Assembly: GCF_030013205.1 (NCBI RefSeq)
Contig: NZ_CP122648.1
DNA length: 64,000 bases
Source: Escherichia coli
Lineage (GTDB): Bacteria > Pseudomonadota > Gammaproteobacteria > Enterobacterales > Enterobacteriaceae
Strand: one strand, 5' to 3'
Under the pieces are notes generated by a model. The model was given only the letters and a program-made list of their open reading frames with translations. It ran no database searches and was not told the origin of the DNA. The position numbers and the translations under genes were made by a program. Positions 166 through 38,894 of the stretch are shown one piece after another (position 1 is the stretch's first letter; each line of letters starts with the position of its first letter).

Positions 166-1779
166 TCAATGCTTCACAATATACATAGTCCGACTGTACG
201 CCACATCTTCCGGGTTATTAATGGGATAACCTTTCAGCCACGGCTTGATTAATCGTCCATTGGTATATTGATAAATTGGTGCAATCGGTGCTTGCTCCAT
301 GAGGATTTTTTCTGCCGTATTGTAATCGGCATTACGCGCTTTAACGGTATTTTCCGTTGATGCCTGGGCCAGTACTTTGTCGTATGCCGGATTGTTAAAG
401 CGTGAAATATTCCCTGAATGCGTTGACGTTAACAACGTAAGGAAAGTGGAGGGTTCATTATAATCCCCTACCCATGAGGCGCGGATAACATCAAAATTGC
501 CGGTGTTACGGCTATCGATATAGGTTTTCCATTCCTGATTCTGCAATTTAACATCTACGCCAAGGTTCTTTTTCCACATCGATGCTACAGCAATCGCAAT
601 TTTTTGATGGTTTTCTGAAGTGTTATACAAAAGCGTCAGCTTCAGCGGTTTTTGCGGACCATAACCAGCTGCGCTCAACAAAGTTTTTGCCTGCGCATTC
701 AGTTCTTCCTGACTCATTTGTTCAAACGGCGAAGGCTCCGGCGTAAAACCGGCAGTAACATCTGGTGTAAAATGCCACGCTGGCTTTTCCCCCGTCCCCA
801 ACACTTTTTCGGTCATCAGGCGGCGATCTATCGTCATACTTAATGCCAGGCGAACACGCTGATCGGCCGTCGGCCCTTTTTGCGTGCTAAACGCATAATA
901 ATAGGTCCCGAGCTGCGGCGGCGTATAAACCTGCCCCGGAATATCCTTCAACAGCTTCTGATACATATTTTTCGGGAAGGATTCGGTGATATCAATATCC
1001 CCCGCGAGATAACGCTTAGTGGCTGCGGATTCCTGATTAATTGGCAGGAAGGTCACTTTTTGCAGTACCGTTTTGGCGTTATCCCAATAATGGGTATTCG
1101 GCACCACGACCAGTTTTTCATTGACTATGCGCTCTTTAAGAACATAAGCGCCATTGCCGATCAGATTTCCGGGTTTCGTCCACTCTTTACTGCTTTCTAC
1201 GTTGGCTTTTTGCACTGGGAAGAAGGCAAAGTTAGCGGTTAAATTCACAAACCACGGCAACGGTTTATCAAGCTGGATTTTCAAAGTATGGGCATCAACT
1301 GCGGTGACGCCAAGCTGGTCAGGCGTGGCTTTACCATCAATAATCGCCTGTGCGTTGTTAATTCCCGCCAGCGCGGCAAACCATGCAAATGGCGACAATG
1401 TTTTTGGGTCCACCAGACGTTGCCAGCTGTAGACAAAATCTTGCGCCGTTACCGGTGTGCCATCCGCCCATTTTGCGTTATCGCGCAGGGTAAAAGTCCA
1501 AATACGGTTGTCATTACTTTTCCACTGAGTCGCAACGCCGGGGACAATCTCCCCTTTCTCGTTCTGATTCACCAGTCCTTCAAACAGATCGCGAATGACC
1601 TGAATCTCCGGCAGGCCCACGGCTTTAGCGGGATCCAGAGACGCTGGCTCATCTTTAATGTGGCGCACCAGCTCCTGCTTCTCTGCCAGTACTGTGCCGC
1701 TCGGAACTTCAGCAGCATACGAAAGAGAAATGCTGCTGACCAACAGCGCACAACACGTGACTGAAACAGAGTGCTTCAT
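166..1779 (-). CDS. mppA: Periplasmic murein tripeptide-binding protein (OppA paralogue)
   Basis: 544-codon ORF in the track; N-terminus MKHSVSVTCCALLVSSISLSYA is a signal peptide. Start placed at the internal Met (MKHSV) to give the recalled 537 aa. Confidence 0.9.
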   Translation of the reverse strand: MKHSVSVTCCALLVSSISLSYAAEVPSGTVLAEKQELVRHIKDEPASLDPAKAVGLPEIQVIRDLFEGLVNQNEKGEIVPGVATQWKSNDNRIWTFTLRDNAKWADGTPVTAQDFVYSWQRLVDPKTLSPFAWFAALAGINNAQAIIDGKATPDQLGVTAVDAHTLKIQLDKPLPWFVNLTANFAFFPVQKANVESSKEWTKPGNLIGNGAYVLKERIVNEKLVVVPNTHYWDNAKTVLQKVTFLPINQESAATKRYLAGDIDITESFPKNMYQKLLKDIPGQVYTPPQLGTYYYAFSTQKGPTADQRVRLALSMTIDRRLMTEKVLGTGEKPAWHFTPDVTAGFTPEPSPFEQMSQEELNAQAKTLLSAAGYGPQKPLKLTLLYNTSENHQKIAIAVASMWKKNLGVDVKLQNQEWKTYIDSRNTGNFDVIRASWVGDYNEPSTFLTLLTSTHSGNISRFNNPAYDKVLAQASTENTVKARNADYNTAEKILMEQAPIAPIYQYTNGRLIKPWLKGYPINNPEDVAYSRTMYIVKH

Positions 1780-1836
1780 AAGTTTCCCTCTAACCGACAT
1801 TAAAATTGATGCGTAATTATTTGTTTCGCCTTAAAG

Positions 1837-1866
1837 AAATGCAAACAACTTCCATCAAAAAAGTGA
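1837..1866 (+). repeat. 30-bp exact direct repeat, copy A (AAATGCAAACAACTTCCATCAAAAAAGTGA), upstream of mppA
   Basis: Read directly from the sequence; identical 30-mer at 5725-5754. Confidence 0.85.
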
Positions 1867-2115
1867 CAAAGGAAGCATCAAATGTTTTAAGTATCAATAT
1901 ATCAAATCAGATTTAGTGTAAATAATAGTCTCCAAAATGCGGTAAAGCACATAGAACTCCGAACACTACGTTCGGGCTTCGCACGTTCAAACCCGTTTTC
2001 GGTATCATAATCAGCATCTGTCGCCATTGTACGAAGAATAAAAAATGACCAAAACGTTGAAAGGAACTGAGAATACGTTAAGAGAAGAATTAAATTAATG
2101 TATCAGCAAGTAGTG

Positions 2116-3015
2116 CTAAACAGCACCTTTATACTTCAGCCTATCTATAAATAATGAGAATGCCGAGCCAGCATGTCGACGGTGTGGATAGTACAGGTGA
2201 TAACCGGGTAAATCTGGTGTGAATTTATCCAAAACACGTATCAGTTTTTATTCTTTAATAGCCCGCTCAACTTGATCATAAGGTAGATACGCCAATCCAT
2301 GCCCATCAATTGCAGCATCAATGATCAGGTCTATCGTATTCAGTAAAAGCTGACCTTCCATGCGAACACGAACTTCACGTCCACCGCGTATTAATCTCCA
2401 GCGATTTGCTGTACCCGATGTGGGAAGATACAAATTAATTGCCTGATGATCTATTAATTGTGACACTGACGTTGGAGCACTTCGACGAGAAAAATAATCC
2501 GGTGAGCCAACAATAGCCATTGGTATATCTGGCCCGATTCGAATGGCGATCATATCTTTATCCATCTCCCCACCCAGACGGACGCCTGCATCAAAACGTT
2601 CAGAAACGACATCGGTCAAACCATAATCAATGGTAAGCTGGATATCAATTTCAGGATGCGATTTCAGGAATGTGCGCATAGCTGGTAACAATATCGTTTT
2701 TGCTGCATGTTCTACAGTAGTAATACGTATTGTCCCGGATGGGCGGTTCTGCAGATCGCTCAGGGATGTCAGGGCAGAATCTATGTCATGCAACATAGGG
2801 CCAAGAACAGACAAAAGATGCTCGCCCGCTTCAGTGGGTACAACGCTGCGCGTGGTTCGCGTCAGAAGCCGCAATCCCAATCGTTCTTCTATACGGCGCA
2901 CTATCTGGCTTAAAGCTGACTGCGCCATGCTCAGGCGGGCTGCTGCGCGAGTGAAGCTACGCTCCTCTGCAACGACGACAAACGCCATCAGATCAGCGAT
3001 TTCTTCACGCTTCAT
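2116..3015 (-). pseudogene. pgrR: LysR-family regulator PgrR interrupted by an in-frame TAA at 2248-2250; expressed ORF 2248-3015 is 255 codons
   Basis: N-terminal LysR HTH (MKREEIADLMAFVVVAEERSFTRAAARL...). Translating past the TAA in the same frame gives KLIRVLDKFTPDLPGYHLYYPHRRHAGSAFSLFIDRLKYKGAV then TAG at 2116-2118, a typical LysR C-terminus. 255 + 1 + 43 = 299 codons, the length I recall for PgrR. Confidence 0.75.
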
Positions 3016-3039
3016 TCAGTATCTCCATACAATCTATTA

Positions 3040-3053
3040 ATCATTTAAATGAT
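3040..3053. promoter_or_regulatory. 14-bp perfect palindrome ATCATTTAAATGAT in the divergent pgrR/ycjY promoter region; candidate LysR-type (PgrR) operator
   Basis: Palindrome read from sequence. Flanked by a direct repeat GGTCTAATCA (3055-3064 and 3073-3082) and a second palindrome GTGATATCAC (3104-3113). Operator assignment is inference. Confidence 0.35.
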
Positions 3054-3152
3054 AGGTCTAATCATAATTTAGGGTCTAATCAACTTAATGATCAATATCT
3101 ATAGTGATATCACCAACCGTCAAAACGAACCGACAACTCCATGAGGAACGGA

Positions 3153-4073
3153 ATGATGAATAATAAAGTCAGCTTCACTAACAGCAATAATCCAACCATC
3201 TCTTTGTCTGCAGTGATCTATTTCCCTCCAAAATTTGATGAAACCCGTCAGTATCCGGCAATTGTGGTATCTCACCCAGGTGGGGGCGTTAAAGAGCAAA
3301 CGGCTGGAACCTATGCCAAAAAACTGGCGGAAAAGGGATTTGTCACTATTGCTTATGACGCATCTTATCAAGGTGAAAGCGGCGGCGAGCCGCGTCAGTT
3401 AGAAAACCCATACATTCGTACTGAAGACGTCAGTGCCGTGATTGATTACCTGACAACGCTTTCTTATGTCGACAATACCCGAATTGGTGCGATGGGAATT
3501 TGTGCCGGTGCAGGATATACAGCCAATGCTGCAATTCAGGATCGCCGCATCAAGGCCATCGGTACTGTTAGTGCGGTCAATATTGGTTCGATGTTCCGTA
3601 ATGGTTGGGAAAACAATGTGAAATCTATTGATGCCCTACCATACGTTGACGCGGGTTCAAACGCCCGAACCAGCGATATTAGTAGCGGAGAATACGCCAC
3701 TATGCCACTGGCACCAATGAAGGAGTCCGATGCGCCGAACGAAGAACTGCGTCAGGCCTGGGAGTATTACCACACCCCTCGCGCGCAGTATCCAACAGCA
3801 CCGGGTTACGCTACTTTGCGCAGCCTTAACCAGATTATTACCTATGATGCTTACCATATGGCGGAAGTGTACCTGACTCAGCCGATACAGATTGTGGCGG
3901 GCAGCCAGGCAGGGAGCAAATGGATGAGTGACGACCTGTACGATCGAGCATCAAGCCAGGATAAACGCTATCACATTGTTGAAGGCGCAAACCATATGGA
4001 TCTTTATGACGGCAAAGTCTATGTGGCTGAAGCAATTTCAGTATTAGCGCCGTTCTTTGAGGAAACTCTGTAA
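3153..4073 (+). CDS. ycjY: Alpha/beta-hydrolase fold protein (dienelactone-hydrolase-like)
   Basis: ORF 3141-4073; start placed at MMNNKV. Recognised as YcjY by sequence recall. Confidence 0.85.
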   Translation: MMNNKVSFTNSNNPTISLSAVIYFPPKFDETRQYPAIVVSHPGGGVKEQTAGTYAKKLAEKGFVTIAYDASYQGESGGEPRQLENPYIRTEDVSAVIDYLTTLSYVDNTRIGAMGICAGAGYTANAAIQDRRIKAIGTVSAVNIGSMFRNGWENNVKSIDALPYVDAGSNARTSDISSGEYATMPLAPMKESDAPNEELRQAWEYYHTPRAQYPTAPGYATLRSLNQIITYDAYHMAEVYLTQPIQIVAGSQAGSKWMSDDLYDRASSQDKRYHIVEGANHMDLYDGKVYVAEAISVLAPFFEETL

Positions 4074-13477: not shown

Positions 13478-13509
13478 TGCCGGATTTGGCGCTCGCGCCG
13501 CATCCGGCA
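13478..13509. repeat. REP-like palindromic element between convergent ycjW and ompG
   Basis: Contains CGCCGCATCCGGCA, the reverse complement of the REP core GCCGGATGCGGCG. Confidence 0.45.
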
Positions 13510-24481: not shown

Positions 24482-26161
24482 TTATTTAATCCACATAACC
24501 TGCCAGGGGCGCAGCGTTATTTCATTACCCAATATATCAACTTCACTAATCAGATCCCGACCGTGCAGATCAGTAATATTTATATGCTGAATATTTTCAC
24601 TGACATTAAACAATCCTGTCAGACAATTACCATCCGCGTTGTTTCTTTGAATACGCATTACGGATGAATTAACCGTATCGATGGTAAAATCATTATCCGG
24701 ATGAAACTCGTTATGACTGCAACGAAGTGTAATTAAACGCGACAACTGATGATATACCGCATGCCTTAATGTATCTTCATCGTTCAGTTCTCGGGTTATC
24801 TCTTCATTGTGATATTTTTTACGGTTAATCGCACGGTTATATCCCAGTTTTTCGACACCTGCGTAATCATTACGCGAGCCAAGAATACTTTGAATATATA
24901 TCGCTGGCACACCGGGGAAACTTAACAAAATCGCATGGGCAAGGATAAACCTGGCGCAACGTTCTACATCGCTACTCTCGCGGCGGCTTAACGCATCCAT
25001 ATAGGTGACATTTATTTCATAGGGACTGCGCGTACCGTCGGGATTATTTTTCCAGTTTACTAATGCACCTTCCTGCTGTAATGCCTCGACCAGCGCTAAT
25101 ATTTCGCTTTCGGGTAACAAGCCACGCAGTGGGTTCGGCCCGATGCCATCGTGAGAGGCGAGGAAGTTAAACCAGGTGGTGTTGCTGGAAGGTAGTGTCA
25201 GGTTTTGCGCCCACGCACAAAGCGCCTCAACGTTCTGTTTTTGCACCGCATGCAGCACCAGCGGCGGCAGCGAGAACTGGTACACCATATGTGCTTCGTC
25301 ATCGCCTTCGCCAAAGTAAGCAATGTTGTCTTTATGCGGAACATTGGTCTCGGTAATGATCACTGTGCCTGGCGCGACGTTATCAATAATCGACCGTAAC
25401 AGTTTGATAATCAGATGTGTTTTTTCCAGATGGATGCAGCTTGTTCCCGGCTCTTTCCATATAAAGCCAACGGCATCCAGACGGACGTATTCCGCGCCCT
25501 TTTCCAGATAACACAGCAATACATCCACCATCGCCAGCAACACTTCAGGGCTACGGTAATTGAGGTCAATTTGATCGTCGCTAAAGGTGGTCCATAAATG
25601 GCGCGTGGAATTATCATCCATTTGAAACGGTGTTAATAGCGGTAACGCACGCGGACGGGTGACGGCGCTGAGATCGGTTTGCGGATCAACCGCAATAAAA
25701 AAATCTTCAAAACCTGGATGCTGTTGTAAATAGTTTTTAAACCATTCACTTTTTGCCGACATATGGTTGCAGACAAAATCAAACATTAAATGACTGCATT
25801 CACCGAGTTGCTGAATATCCTGCCACTCCCCCGCTTCACTGGCGACCTGATGATAATCAATTACCGAAAACCCATCATCAGATGACCATGGATAAAAAGG
25901 TAATAAATGAACATGTGAAAAAATGCTTTGCAGCCATTGATGGTAAAACTGATTAAATGTGGGTAGTGGTTTTAAATCATTACTGTGAAATTGATCAGCA
26001 TAGGTAATTAACACGACATCACTTTCATCCCAGTGTTTTTTACGTCGCTGTGTAATTAATCGTTTCGCACTCTCAAGACGCGTTACAAGTTTCTGTAAAT
26101 GAGTTGCGGTAAATGTTCCACCGTAGATTTCGTCCAGGTAATCCGTAATTTTCTGTTTCAT
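24482..26161 (-). CDS. ycjM: GH13 sucrose-phosphorylase-family enzyme (glucosylglycerate phosphorylase)
   Basis: ORF 24482-26188; start placed at MKQKITDY (GGAAAGG 6 nt upstream) to give 559 aa. Confidence 0.85.
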   Translation of the reverse strand: MKQKITDYLDEIYGGTFTATHLQKLVTRLESAKRLITQRRKKHWDESDVVLITYADQFHSNDLKPLPTFNQFYHQWLQSIFSHVHLLPFYPWSSDDGFSVIDYHQVASEAGEWQDIQQLGECSHLMFDFVCNHMSAKSEWFKNYLQQHPGFEDFFIAVDPQTDLSAVTRPRALPLLTPFQMDDNSTRHLWTTFSDDQIDLNYRSPEVLLAMVDVLLCYLEKGAEYVRLDAVGFIWKEPGTSCIHLEKTHLIIKLLRSIIDNVAPGTVIITETNVPHKDNIAYFGEGDDEAHMVYQFSLPPLVLHAVQKQNVEALCAWAQNLTLPSSNTTWFNFLASHDGIGPNPLRGLLPESEILALVEALQQEGALVNWKNNPDGTRSPYEINVTYMDALSRRESSDVERCARFILAHAILLSFPGVPAIYIQSILGSRNDYAGVEKLGYNRAINRKKYHNEEITRELNDEDTLRHAVYHQLSRLITLRCSHNEFHPDNDFTIDTVNSSVMRIQRNNADGNCLTGLFNVSENIQHINITDLHGRDLISEVDILGNEITLRPWQVMWIK

Positions 26162-26171
26162 GTTGCCTTTC

Positions 26172-26188
26172 CGTGGTAGCGGTCCCAT
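26172..26188. promoter_or_regulatory. 17-bp exact repeat (minus strand ATGGGACCGCTACCACG) 11-27 nt upstream of the ycjM start; candidate YcjW operator
   Basis: Identical to 16243-16259. Sits at the head of the ycjM operon, overlapping the ribosome-binding region. Confidence 0.35.
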
Positions 26189-26329
26189 GAAACGAGAGAC
26201 TACTCCGCAGAAAATAAACTGTCAATTGAGCACAAGGGTTTTAGTCACGCAGGAAATCATTTTTTACCAGGGAAAAAGCGTATTTGTGAGCTGACGCAAA
26301 TAATCTATGGGGATGTAAATAAGGTGTGA

Positions 26330-26362
26330 CAGAAAAAGTAAACGGCGCATAAGCGCCGCTTA
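26330..26362 (-). terminator. Intrinsic terminator downstream of pspE (GC stem CGGCGC/GCGCCG then U-tract)
   Basis: On the minus strand the hairpin is followed by TTTACTTTTT, 13 nt after the pspE stop. Confidence 0.6.
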
Positions 26363-26374
26363 GGGTGGATTCTT

Positions 26375-26689
26375 TTAACCTTTGACCTTCGGCATTGCGA
26401 TGTCTTTCAGGCCACCGGCGTTCTCAACGTGGGTATATCCCATCTCGCTAAGGATCTCTTTTGCCTGCCCTGACTGGCGTCCGGCATTGCAATACACTTT
26501 CACGGTGTCGTTTTTATCCGGAACGGCGGTGGCAATGCGCTCTTTTACTTCCTTCAGGGGAATATTGATGGCCCCCTGAACGTGCTCTTGCTGATACTGC
26601 TCTGGAACACGAACATCGATCCAGTGTTCAGCGGCGAAAACGGGCAGTGAAAACACCAGTGTCAGAGCAAGTAAGCCTTTTTTAAACAT
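26375..26689 (-). CDS. pspE: Periplasmic rhodanese (thiosulfate sulfurtransferase)
   Basis: 104-aa ORF with signal peptide and rhodanese active-site Cys. Confidence 0.9.
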   Translation of the reverse strand: MFKKGLLALTLVFSLPVFAAEHWIDVRVPEQYQQEHVQGAINIPLKEVKERIATAVPDKNDTVKVYCNAGRQSGQAKEILSEMGYTHVENAGGLKDIAMPKVKG

Positions 26690-26763
26690 GTAAGCGTCCT
26701 TCTATGGATGAAAATTGCCATCCATAATATGCCTTAGCTTTAACAATTTTTGCGAAACTCCCC

Positions 26764-26985
26764 TCACCTTTTATAACGCTGCGCCAGTTTATTGGCAGCC
26801 CGACTTAACAGCGGTTCCAGCGCCACGGCCAGCAACATTTTCAGTGGTCGGCGAGCAACTGATTTTATCGCCCAGCCAGCTACACCCGCCGGGCCATAGC
26901 GCAGTGCGGTAAGAAGTACCAGCTTGCCTGCTAATTTGAAACCAGGCTTCACCTTTTGCCCGGCCTGTTGCCAGCGAGTATTCAT
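26764..26985 (-). CDS. pspD: Phage shock protein D
   Basis: ORF 26764-26997; start placed at MNTRWQQ to give 73 aa. Confidence 0.8.
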
Positions 26986-26993
26986 AACTTTCC

Positions 26994-27353
26994 TCACAGT
27001 TGACGGAAACGGCTACGTAACGTGAAAGTATCGGAAGTGACATAACGTTCCATCTCGCGTAAACGCGTTTCACTTGCCGCCAGTTCACGGTCGACTTCAT
27101 CCAGCAATTCACTGCTGGAAGGTAGCTGCTCACCAAAGGCCATGTTGTCCGGCATTGGATCAAGCGCAAATGACAAAATGATGTAAGCAACCAGGGTAAA
27201 CAGCGCCAGACCGAAGAAAATCGACAGCACCACCAGGATACGCACCAGTTTTACCGGTACATCAAAATAGTTGGCAATCCCGGCGCAAACGCCGCGTACC
27301 ATGCCCTGCTGCGGAATACGCCATAATTTTTTATTGAGATTAATGCCCGCCAT
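26994..27353 (-). CDS. pspC: Phage shock protein C
   Basis: 119-aa ORF; recognised by sequence recall. Confidence 0.9.
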
Positions 27354-27577
27354 TAGCGATCCCTCCAGTTCGGATGTTCTGCATCAAGAATAGATTCCAG
27401 CGCCTGAATACGTTCGCGCATCCGTTTTGCTTCATCAGCCAGTTGCGCTAATCGCTGCTGCTCACTTTGCGACAATTCACTGCGACCAGAACGATTGCTG
27501 TAATGCAGCCATAACCAGATCGGTAAAACAAACAGCACAAAAATGGTTAACGGAATAGCCAGAAATAGCGCGCTCAT
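27353..27577 (-). CDS. pspB: Phage shock protein B
   Basis: 74-aa ORF; recognised by sequence recall. Confidence 0.9.
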   Translation of the reverse strand: MSALFLAIPLTIFVLFVLPIWLWLHYSNRSGRSELSQSEQQRLAQLADEAKRMRERIQALESILDAEHPNWRDR

Positions 27578-27630
27578 AAGGACTCCTTAGACGATGAGCG
27601 GCGGCGCGTTCGGACGCCGCCTGGATGTTA

Positions 27631-28371
<741 letters not shown>

Positions 28372-28465
28372 TTATCTTTTTGATTTATAAAGATCTGATT
28401 GAAGAATCAACAGCAACATGCCAGGATGAGTTAGCGAATTACACTAACAAGTGGCGAATTTCATC

Positions 28466-29443
28466 ATGGCAGAATACAAAGATAATTTACTCGGTGAGGC
28501 GAACAGCTTTCTCGAAGTGCTGGAACAGGTTTCGCATCTCGCACCGCTGGACAAACCGGTGCTCATCATCGGCGAGCGCGGCACAGGTAAAGAGCTGATT
28601 GCCAGCCGTCTGCATTATCTCTCCTCCCGTTGGCAAGGGCCGTTTATTTCCCTTAACTGTGCGGCGTTAAATGAAAATCTGCTGGATTCCGAACTGTTTG
28701 GTCACGAAGCGGGCGCGTTTACCGGTGCGCAAAAACGTCATCCAGGGAGATTTGAACGTGCCGACGGCGGTACGCTATTTCTTGATGAACTCGCTACGGC
28801 ACCGATGATGGTGCAGGAGAAATTATTGCGCGTGATTGAGTACGGTGAACTGGAGCGCGTTGGCGGCAGCCAGCCATTGCAGGTGAATGTGCGGTTGGTA
28901 TGCGCGACGAATGCCGATCTCCCGGCGATGGTCAATGAAGGTACTTTTCGCGCTGACCTGCTCGACCGGCTGGCTTTCGATGTAGTGCAACTGCCGCCCC
29001 TGCGCGAGCGCGAAAGCGACATTATGCTGATGGCAGAACACTTTGCCATTCAGATGTGTCGGGAAATCAAGCTGCCTCTGTTCCCGGGTTTTACGGAGCG
29101 CGCCAGAGAAACATTGCTGAATTATCGCTGGCCGGGAAATATTCGTGAATTGAAAAACGTGGTGGAACGTTCGGTGTATCGCCACGGCACCAGCGATTAT
29201 CCGCTTGATGACATTATTATTGATCCCTTTAAACGGCGTCCGCCTGAAGACGCTATCGCCGTTTCAGAAACCACCTCGCTTCCAACACTGCCGCTGGATT
29301 TACGTGAGTTTCAGATGCAGCAGGAAAAAGAGTTGCTGCAACTCAGTTTGCAACAAGGGAAATATAACCAGAAGCGCGCAGCTGAATTGCTGGGGTTAAC
29401 CTATCATCAGTTCCGCGCGTTGTTGAAAAAGCACCAGATTTAG
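28466..29443 (+). CDS. pspF: Sigma54-dependent activator PspF (AAA+ enhancer-binding protein lacking a regulatory domain)
   Basis: ORF 28451-29443; start placed at MAEYKDNLL to give 325 aa; contains the GAFTGA motif. Confidence 0.9.
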   Translation: MAEYKDNLLGEANSFLEVLEQVSHLAPLDKPVLIIGERGTGKELIASRLHYLSSRWQGPFISLNCAALNENLLDSELFGHEAGAFTGAQKRHPGRFERADGGTLFLDELATAPMMVQEKLLRVIEYGELERVGGSQPLQVNVRLVCATNADLPAMVNEGTFRADLLDRLAFDVVQLPPLRERESDIMLMAEHFAIQMCREIKLPLFPGFTERARETLLNYRWPGNIRELKNVVERSVYRHGTSDYPLDDIIIDPFKRRPPEDAIAVSETTSLPTLPLDLREFQMQQEKELLQLSLQQGKYNQKRAAELLGLTYHQFRALLKKHQI

Positions 29444-29464: not shown

Positions 29465-29545
29465 GCCGGATGCGGCGTGAATGCTTTATCCGGCATACAT
29501 AATCAATACGTCGTTTGCAGGCCTGATAAGCGCAGCGCATCAGAC
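29465..29545. repeat. Two adjacent REP elements (BIME-like) between convergent pspF and puuE
   Basis: GCCGGATGCGGCGTGAATGCTTTATCCGGC followed by GCCTGATAAGCGCAGCGCATCAGAC. Confidence 0.6.
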
Positions 29546-38863: not shown

Positions 38864-38894
38864 GCCCGGATAAAGCGTTCACGCCGCATCCGGC
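38864..38894. repeat. REP element downstream of ymjA
   Basis: GCCCGGATAAAGCGTTCACGCCGCATCCGGC. Confidence 0.55.

Follow-up and report, generated by a model that had tools for sequence, protein, structure and literature searches.

In the puf operon of Rhodobacter capsulatus (pufBA versus pufLMX), hairpins that follow the promoter-proximal cistrons yield a short, stable mRNA and fix the proportions of the proteins in a membrane complex. The hairpin between pspA and pspB considered here resembles that arrangement by analogy only; the organism and the sequence differ, and the puf operon carries several hairpins versus one. A second precedent is the malE-malF stabilizer (Newbury et al. 1987, as cited by Dar and Sorek, PMC5927463), with which the psp element shares its placement, that of an intra-operon hairpin 3′ of the first and most abundant cistron, and the proposed sequence of events, in which an endonucleolytic cut and a stalled 3′ exonuclease leave an excess of the first-gene mRNA. 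The malE-malF element is built from REP repeats, of which the genome holds hundreds, whereas the psp hairpin is genome-unique and unrelated in sequence, and the malE-malF element was tested by deletion, whereas the role of the psp hairpin rests on correlative data. Dar and Sorek (PLoS Genet 2018, 14:e1007354; PMC5927463) looked for differential mRNA decay in 390 E. coli operons and interpreted the protective 3′ hairpins that emerged with the malE-malF model of an endonucleolytic cut followed by a 3′-to-5′ exonuclease stall. As a class, these hairpins have no uridine tract and give no sign of termination sensitive to bicyclomycin (Rho), gene pairs with an internal promoter, a terminator signature, or Rho termination having been excluded before listing; the paper also links differential decay to ribosome density. 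The psp hairpin is one of the 26 E. coli sites in their set, with the same sequence, the same −16.8 kcal/mol fold energy, a 3′ end directly after the stem, and no U-tract. Inasmuch as 17 of the 26 sites lie inside the downstream ORF, it belongs to the minority found in intergenic spacers (PMC5927463).

We analyzed a 64,000-nt stretch of E. coli chromosomal DNA (the window), in which pspABCDE occupies the minus strand and pspF is divergent from it on the plus strand. The coding sequences of pspA (28299..27631) and pspB (27577..27353) are supported by both the ORF list and the RefSeq annotation, and those of pspC (27353..26994), pspD (26997..26764), and pspE (26689..26375) were taken from the ORF list. 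A 221-nt query covering the pspA-pspB junction was found in 5,419 of 5,426 complete E. coli genomes, where RefSeq annotates pspA and pspB, and strain 118UI matches it at 100% identity. On the minus strand, the junction reads ...CAA UAA UAA CAUCCA GGCGGCGUCCGAACGCGCCGCC GCUCAUCGUCU AAGGAG UCCUU AUG. The tandem in-frame pspA stop codons UAA UAA (27628..27633, minus strand) end 6 nt upstream of the stem, and TAATAA also closes pspA in most of the orthologous spacers that we extracted. At the other end of the spacer, the pspB Shine-Dalgarno sequence AAGGAG (27583..27588, minus strand) lies 11 nt 3′ of the stem and 5 nt before the AUG; it is strong and forms an invariant column block in our alignment of orthologous spacers (A1, described below). 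The whole spacer is 53 nt long and holds the hairpin inside the operon, directly 3′ of pspA.

An earlier note made from this DNA had pointed to an inverted repeat without a U-tract between the pspA stop and the pspB ribosome-binding site, and the hairpin is indeed real and conserved. It lies at exactly 27621..27600 on the minus strand and has the form GGCGGCGU/CCGAAC/GCGCCGCC. The dimensions given in that note, 7 pairs around an 8-nt loop, need correction, since RNAfold returns 8 pairs (7 G-C plus a closing U·G), a 6-nt loop, and −16.8 kcal/mol. A gap of 9 nt separates the first pspA stop codon from the stem, and another of 22 nt separates the end of the stem from the pspB AUG. Downstream of the stem, the 8-nt tail GCUCAUCG holds 2 U and begins with G and C, and a terminator scan returned no intrinsic terminator call at the hairpin on the minus strand. 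The fold is more stable than expected from its composition (z = −2.85), with 1 of 200 dinucleotide shuffles being equally stable. In a sliding 30-nt fold across the whole 64-kb window, we counted about 20 single hairpins at or below −17 kcal/mol on the minus strand, approximately one per 3 kb, so that, on the single sequence, the hairpin exceeds chance only modestly, a 53-nt spacer having about a 2% likelihood of holding one. A cmscan search of 26000-29000 gave no relevant Rfam match at E values up to 10, the one hit being at chance level and elsewhere.

Two independent Term-seq studies have mapped the 3′ end of the pspA transcript to this hairpin. Dar and Sorek report an end at genome position 1363039 with a fold energy of −16.8 kcal/mol (S6 table), and the upstream sequence that they print finishes ...AGGCGGCGTCCGAACGCGCCGCCGCT, that is, ...CGCCGCCGCT (PMC5927463). 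By sequence identity, this end falls 3 nt after the stem, at window position 27597. Adams et al. (eLife 2021, 10:e62438; PMC7815308, supplementary file 1) list an end at MG1655 1368782 (+) with 1,943 reads and class it as the "primary" 3′ end of pspA. This end, the 51st nucleotide of the printed string, maps by sequence identity to the C 4 nt after the stem, window position 27596; the register of the 61-nt strings was checked on the sgrS row (PMC7815308). The two published ends (27596..27597, minus strand) are thus 1 nt apart, and the 3′-end mapping across the junction that the earlier note had proposed is already in print. We note that Adams et al. (PMC7815308) list pspA in a single condition sheet, which is probably LB at OD 0.4 judging from its position in the file, and that Term-seq records processed and terminated 3′ ends without distinguishing them.

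The abundance and stability of the two messages differ across the same junction. In the S3 table of Dar and Sorek, pspA is the stabilized upstream member of the pspA/pspB pair, with a half-life ratio of 2.12 that derives from a single external data set (Moffitt et al. 2016) and carries no standard deviation (PMC5927463). The steady-state pspA/pspB mRNA ratio is 2.72 ± 0.16 in E. coli (S3) and 3.95 ± 0.26 in Salmonella SL1344 (S5), where a Term-seq end likewise follows the homologous hairpin, of −16.1 kcal/mol (S5, PMC5927463). These measurements come from uninduced LB cultures with low psp expression, and the published evidence on the pair is genome-wide and correlative. Neither the E. aerogenes conservation table (S4) contains pspA/pspB, nor do the RNase E site table (S7) or the kasugamycin tables contain pspA (PMC5927463). 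The expectation that pspA is expressed above pspBCDE therefore holds in both species; equal transcript abundance on the two sides of the hairpin is not what the ratios of 2.72 and 3.95 describe. Between the two effects that the earlier note had offered, a stabilized pspA message is favored by the half-life ratio and by the 3′ ends just after the stem, while reduced read-through is not specifically supported, since a U-tract is missing and this class of sites showed no effect of Rho.

Taken with its position, these data suggest to us that the hairpin is probably an intercistronic 3′ stabilizer of the malE-malF type that blocks 3′-to-5′ exonucleases and so protects the pspA segment. In the sequence of events that we propose, pspABCDE would be made as a single RNA from the sigma-54 promoter and would be cut downstream of the hairpin by an endonuclease, presumably RNase E, either in the pspB leader or in the U-rich start of pspB. 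A 3′-to-5′ exonuclease, likely PNPase or RNase II, would then degrade the RNA until it stalls at the base of the 8-bp GC stem. The pspA-only mRNA left by this process, ending 3-4 nt after the stem, would live about twice as long as the pspBCDE part, of which pspB is the first cistron, and the outcome would be two- to four-fold more pspA than pspB message. We infer that the hairpin is the cause of the stability difference. RNase E motifs (RN|WUU) occur at 2.0 per 100 nt downstream (pspBCD) versus 1.5 in pspA, a difference too slight to be informative. PspA, which assembles into large oligomers, is the bulk effector of membrane repair and in addition inhibits the activator PspF, and the membrane sensors PspB and PspC are present in low copy. 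A surplus of pspA message fits the bulk need for an oligomeric effector and anti-activator relative to two low-copy sensors. If it arises post-transcriptionally from one promoter, as proposed, this excess would help to explain what sets the PspA:PspBC stoichiometry and, through it, how strongly the negative feedback acts.

The hairpin invites comparison with intrinsic terminators, with which it shares an 8-bp GC-rich stem, a short loop, and an RNA 3′ end a few nucleotides after the stem. Unlike them, it has no U-tract and lies inside an operon, 22 nt before the next start codon, and the genes downstream are still expressed from the same transcript, the true terminator being located after pspE. 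Intrinsic termination needs a weak rU:dA hybrid. Such a hybrid is absent over the U-poor, G- and C-initiated tail GCUCAUCG, and intrinsic termination at this hairpin is unlikely because of that G/C-rich, U-poor tail. It might still be argued that the hairpin is a leaky terminator at which a fraction of polymerases stop after pspA without a U-tract, perhaps aided by NusA or NusG, thereby lowering transcription of pspBCDE. A strong GC hairpin with an in vivo 3′ end 3-4 nt beyond it is a terminator-like pattern too, the "primary" filing of the pspA end by Adams et al. (PMC7815308) agrees with it, and 6 of 80 orthologues carry 4-5 T in the 8 nt after the stem; leaky termination and stabilization are also not mutually exclusive. 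Weighing on the other side are the silent terminator scan, the 74 of 80 orthologues whose tails hold at most 3 T, the longer pspA half-life, which termination alone does not explain, and the removal by Dar and Sorek of pairs with terminator signatures or bicyclomycin-sensitive termination before pspA/pspB was listed (PMC5927463). We consider partial termination unlikely as the explanation in E. coli.

The canonical terminator of the operon lies after pspE (26339..26362, minus strand), where the scan calls a 10-bp stem followed by a T-run and where Adams et al. map a 3′ end (PMC7815308). Its tail in this window is GTTTACTTTTTCTG, compared with GTTTTTTTTTCTG in MG1655 as printed by Adams et al. 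(PMC7815308), a difference showing that the window does not come from K-12. The pspD-pspE spacer (26690-26763, minus strand) served as an in-operon control; it contains an AU-rich 10-bp hairpin, UAUGGAUGG...CAUCCAUA, that is not significant against its shuffles (z −1.6).

Comparative analysis provides the strongest argument that the pspA-pspB hairpin is a selected structure. The orthologue set comprised 80 loci from a PspA scan, one genome per species, drawn from Enterobacteriaceae, Erwiniaceae, and Pectobacteriaceae; from each locus the spacer between the pspA stop and the pspB start was extracted, and the best single hairpin was sought in it. A hairpin of −11.5 kcal/mol or lower is present in 79 of the 80 spacers, with stem sequences that differ. 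The median distance is 8 nt from the stop to the start of the hairpin and 23 nt from its end to the pspB AUG. Among these hairpins, we found 34 distinct loop-proximal arm sequences as well as variable loops, and 57 of the 76 unique spacers have a fold more stable than 95% of the dinucleotide shuffles made from them (median z −2.2). In a MAFFT alignment of 70 spacers (alignment A1), 89.6% of the cells in the E. coli 8-pair helix are paired, and compensatory changes on both sides occur in 6 of the 8 pairs; the pair at columns 40-54, for example, is AU in 32 sequences, GC in 30, and GU in 5. None of 500 shuffles reached the observed pairing or covariation score, and sliding the 3′ arm by 1-3 columns reduced the pairing to only 24-67%. 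On the raw MAFFT alignment of the 70 spacers, RNAalifold recovered only 4 inner pairs because the long-stem genera (the Cedecea/Buttiauxella group) are out of register; the pair counts given here for A1 were made for the stated 8-pair structure instead of the RNAalifold consensus. From the alignments, the predicted structure rather than the sequence is what is conserved in the relatives, and we regard this comparative evidence for the hairpin as strong and as decisive over the single-sequence statistics. The lack of conservation in the loops suits a purely structural role and argues against a sequence-specific protein or sRNA partner. The median distance of 8 nt from stop to stem suggests that terminating ribosomes would come up nearly to the stem, so that little of the RNA between the ORF and the hairpin would be bare.

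The relatives also include several departures from the E. coli arrangement. The six loci with T-rich tails (L059, L065, L072, L073, L075, and L080; 4-5 T in 8 nt after the stem) belong to Dryocola, an Enterobacteriaceae MAG, a record labeled "C. freundii M-21", Atlantibacter, and two Erwinia. Judged by its tail, the hairpin in these loci resembles a true, if weak, intrinsic terminator within the operon, and termination may accordingly play a part in those lineages. Pantoea coffeiphila (L074), with a spacer of 35 nt, is the sole orthologue of the 80 without a stable hairpin, and it offers a natural loss-of-element comparison. Expanded spacers with extra structured inserts occur in six loci (L055, L062, L063, L051, L077, and L079), their lengths including 164 nt in Kluyvera intermedia, 146 and 139 nt in Raoultella, 104 nt in an Enterobacteriaceae genome, and 101 nt in Pectobacterium. 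The conserved GC hairpin adjoins pspB in Raoultella, and it adjoins the pspA stop in Kluyvera and in L051.

The copy number of the hairpin bears on whether it is a dispersed repeat of the REP/BIME kind or an inverted repeat that arose by chance and has no function. REP elements are GC-rich hairpins that also stabilize upstream mRNA, several are present in the window, and hairpins of this stability are not very rare there. The psp hairpin nevertheless gives one match in the window when up to 3 mismatches are allowed and has a median of one place per genome across the 5,419 E. coli genomes, and about 5,090 records carry its 34-nt core at 100% identity; being single-copy, it is not a REP/BIME repeat, and the Rfam search was negative as well. 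Chance is excluded by the conservation with compensatory changes across genera. Copy number and covariation together led us to reject both readings, to which we assign next to no probability. The REP-like hairpins in the window lie at 29465-29494, 38865-38894, and 13479-13508 (GCCGGATGCGGCG...CCGGC) and are unrelated in sequence to the psp hairpin. The first of these is located between pspF and the downstream aminotransferase gene.

The spacer immediately 3′ of the GC hairpin has a folding potential of its own. A second, weaker hairpin is predicted at 27572..27599 on the minus strand (GCUCA..UAAGG AGU CCUUA UGAGC, −8.9 kcal/mol), which would pair both the pspB Shine-Dalgarno sequence and the AUG, and the published pspA 3′ ends at 27596/27597 fall within its 5′ arm. 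Among the orthologues, GCUCAU/AUGAGC pairing is shared by Escherichia, Citrobacter, Salmonella, and Pluralibacter only, and one arm of this helix is fixed by coding sequence. As modeled, it is possible that the second hairpin contributes to lower pspB translation. This raises the question of whether the junction acts on translation in the first place, with the GC hairpin insulating pspB initiation from ribosomes that terminate on pspA, or setting a low level of pspB translation together with the SD/AUG helix, and with the mRNA difference being secondary to lower ribosome cover. The fairly constant distance from the hairpin to the pspB start (median 23 nt), the capacity of the next 28 nt in E. 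coli to pair the SD and the AUG at −8.9 kcal/mol, and the link between differential decay and ribosome density drawn by Dar and Sorek (PMC5927463) are in line with such a role. Against this, the SD/AUG helix is confined to one clade, the GC hairpin itself touches neither the SD nor the AUG, the pspB AAGGAG is strong and invariant, and a discrete 3′ end at the base of the stem is left unexplained. We therefore rate a primary effect on translation as very unlikely.

The same helix enters a more elaborate proposal, in which the hairpin would be a U-tract-independent attenuator, modulated by a factor or by stress, whose read-through shifts on Psp induction, with the GCUCAU/AUGAGC helix coupling the fate of the junction to pspB translation. 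Were this true, the PspA:PspBC ratio would be actively retuned and would not simply follow from a passive exonuclease stop. We hold this attenuator to be decidedly improbable.

The consensus scan does list one site at the junction on the opposite strand, at 27606-27628 (plus strand) with the tail TATTATTGAT, as would be expected if the hairpin served to terminate antisense transcription entering the psp operon. The stem behind this call is shifted and weaker, having 3 GC pairs, and the call is probably a pattern artifact because its T-rich tail complements the pspA UAAUAA stops. Within the psp operon, the upstream side holds no plus-strand gene or promoter-like site except one weak consensus match, and the supplementary table of Adams et al. 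places a 3′ end on the psp coding strand only (PMC7815308). We rejected an antisense terminator on the grounds of the weak, shifted stem, the stop-codon-derived tail, and the coding-strand-only 3′ end, and regard it as almost certainly incorrect.

With the stabilizer as the preferred reading, the hairpin is an ordinary member of a described class, already cataloged in two published 3′-end mapping studies. The text of Dar and Sorek never names psp, the junction being named only in their supplementary tables (PMC5927463). Our literature search, which did not reach early work on psp such as Brissette et al. 1991 and Model et al. 1997, found no explicit earlier description of a pspA-pspB stem-loop, no Term-seq text that names pspA, and no experiment in which the hairpin was deleted or weakened. 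The hairpin opens no new question, and it is useful as an uncomplicated intergenic, single-copy case on which to test the differential-decay model. What our analysis adds to the known picture is modest, namely the structural conservation across Enterobacteriaceae, Erwiniaceae, and Pectobacteriaceae and the travel of the element with the plasmid-borne psp operon. As to the latter, 41 matches to the hairpin in E. coli assemblies sit on plasmids. On the one plasmid that we inspected, pCUVET25-1155.1 (L081), a complete pspF-pspABCD block occupies positions 679-3369 between qnrB4 and blaDHA-1. Its pspA-pspB hairpin, at about 2501-2522, is of the Citrobacter type (GGCGGUGC CCGAAC GCGCCGCC), which indicates that the element moves with the mobilized psp operon on qnrB4/blaDHA-1 plasmids.
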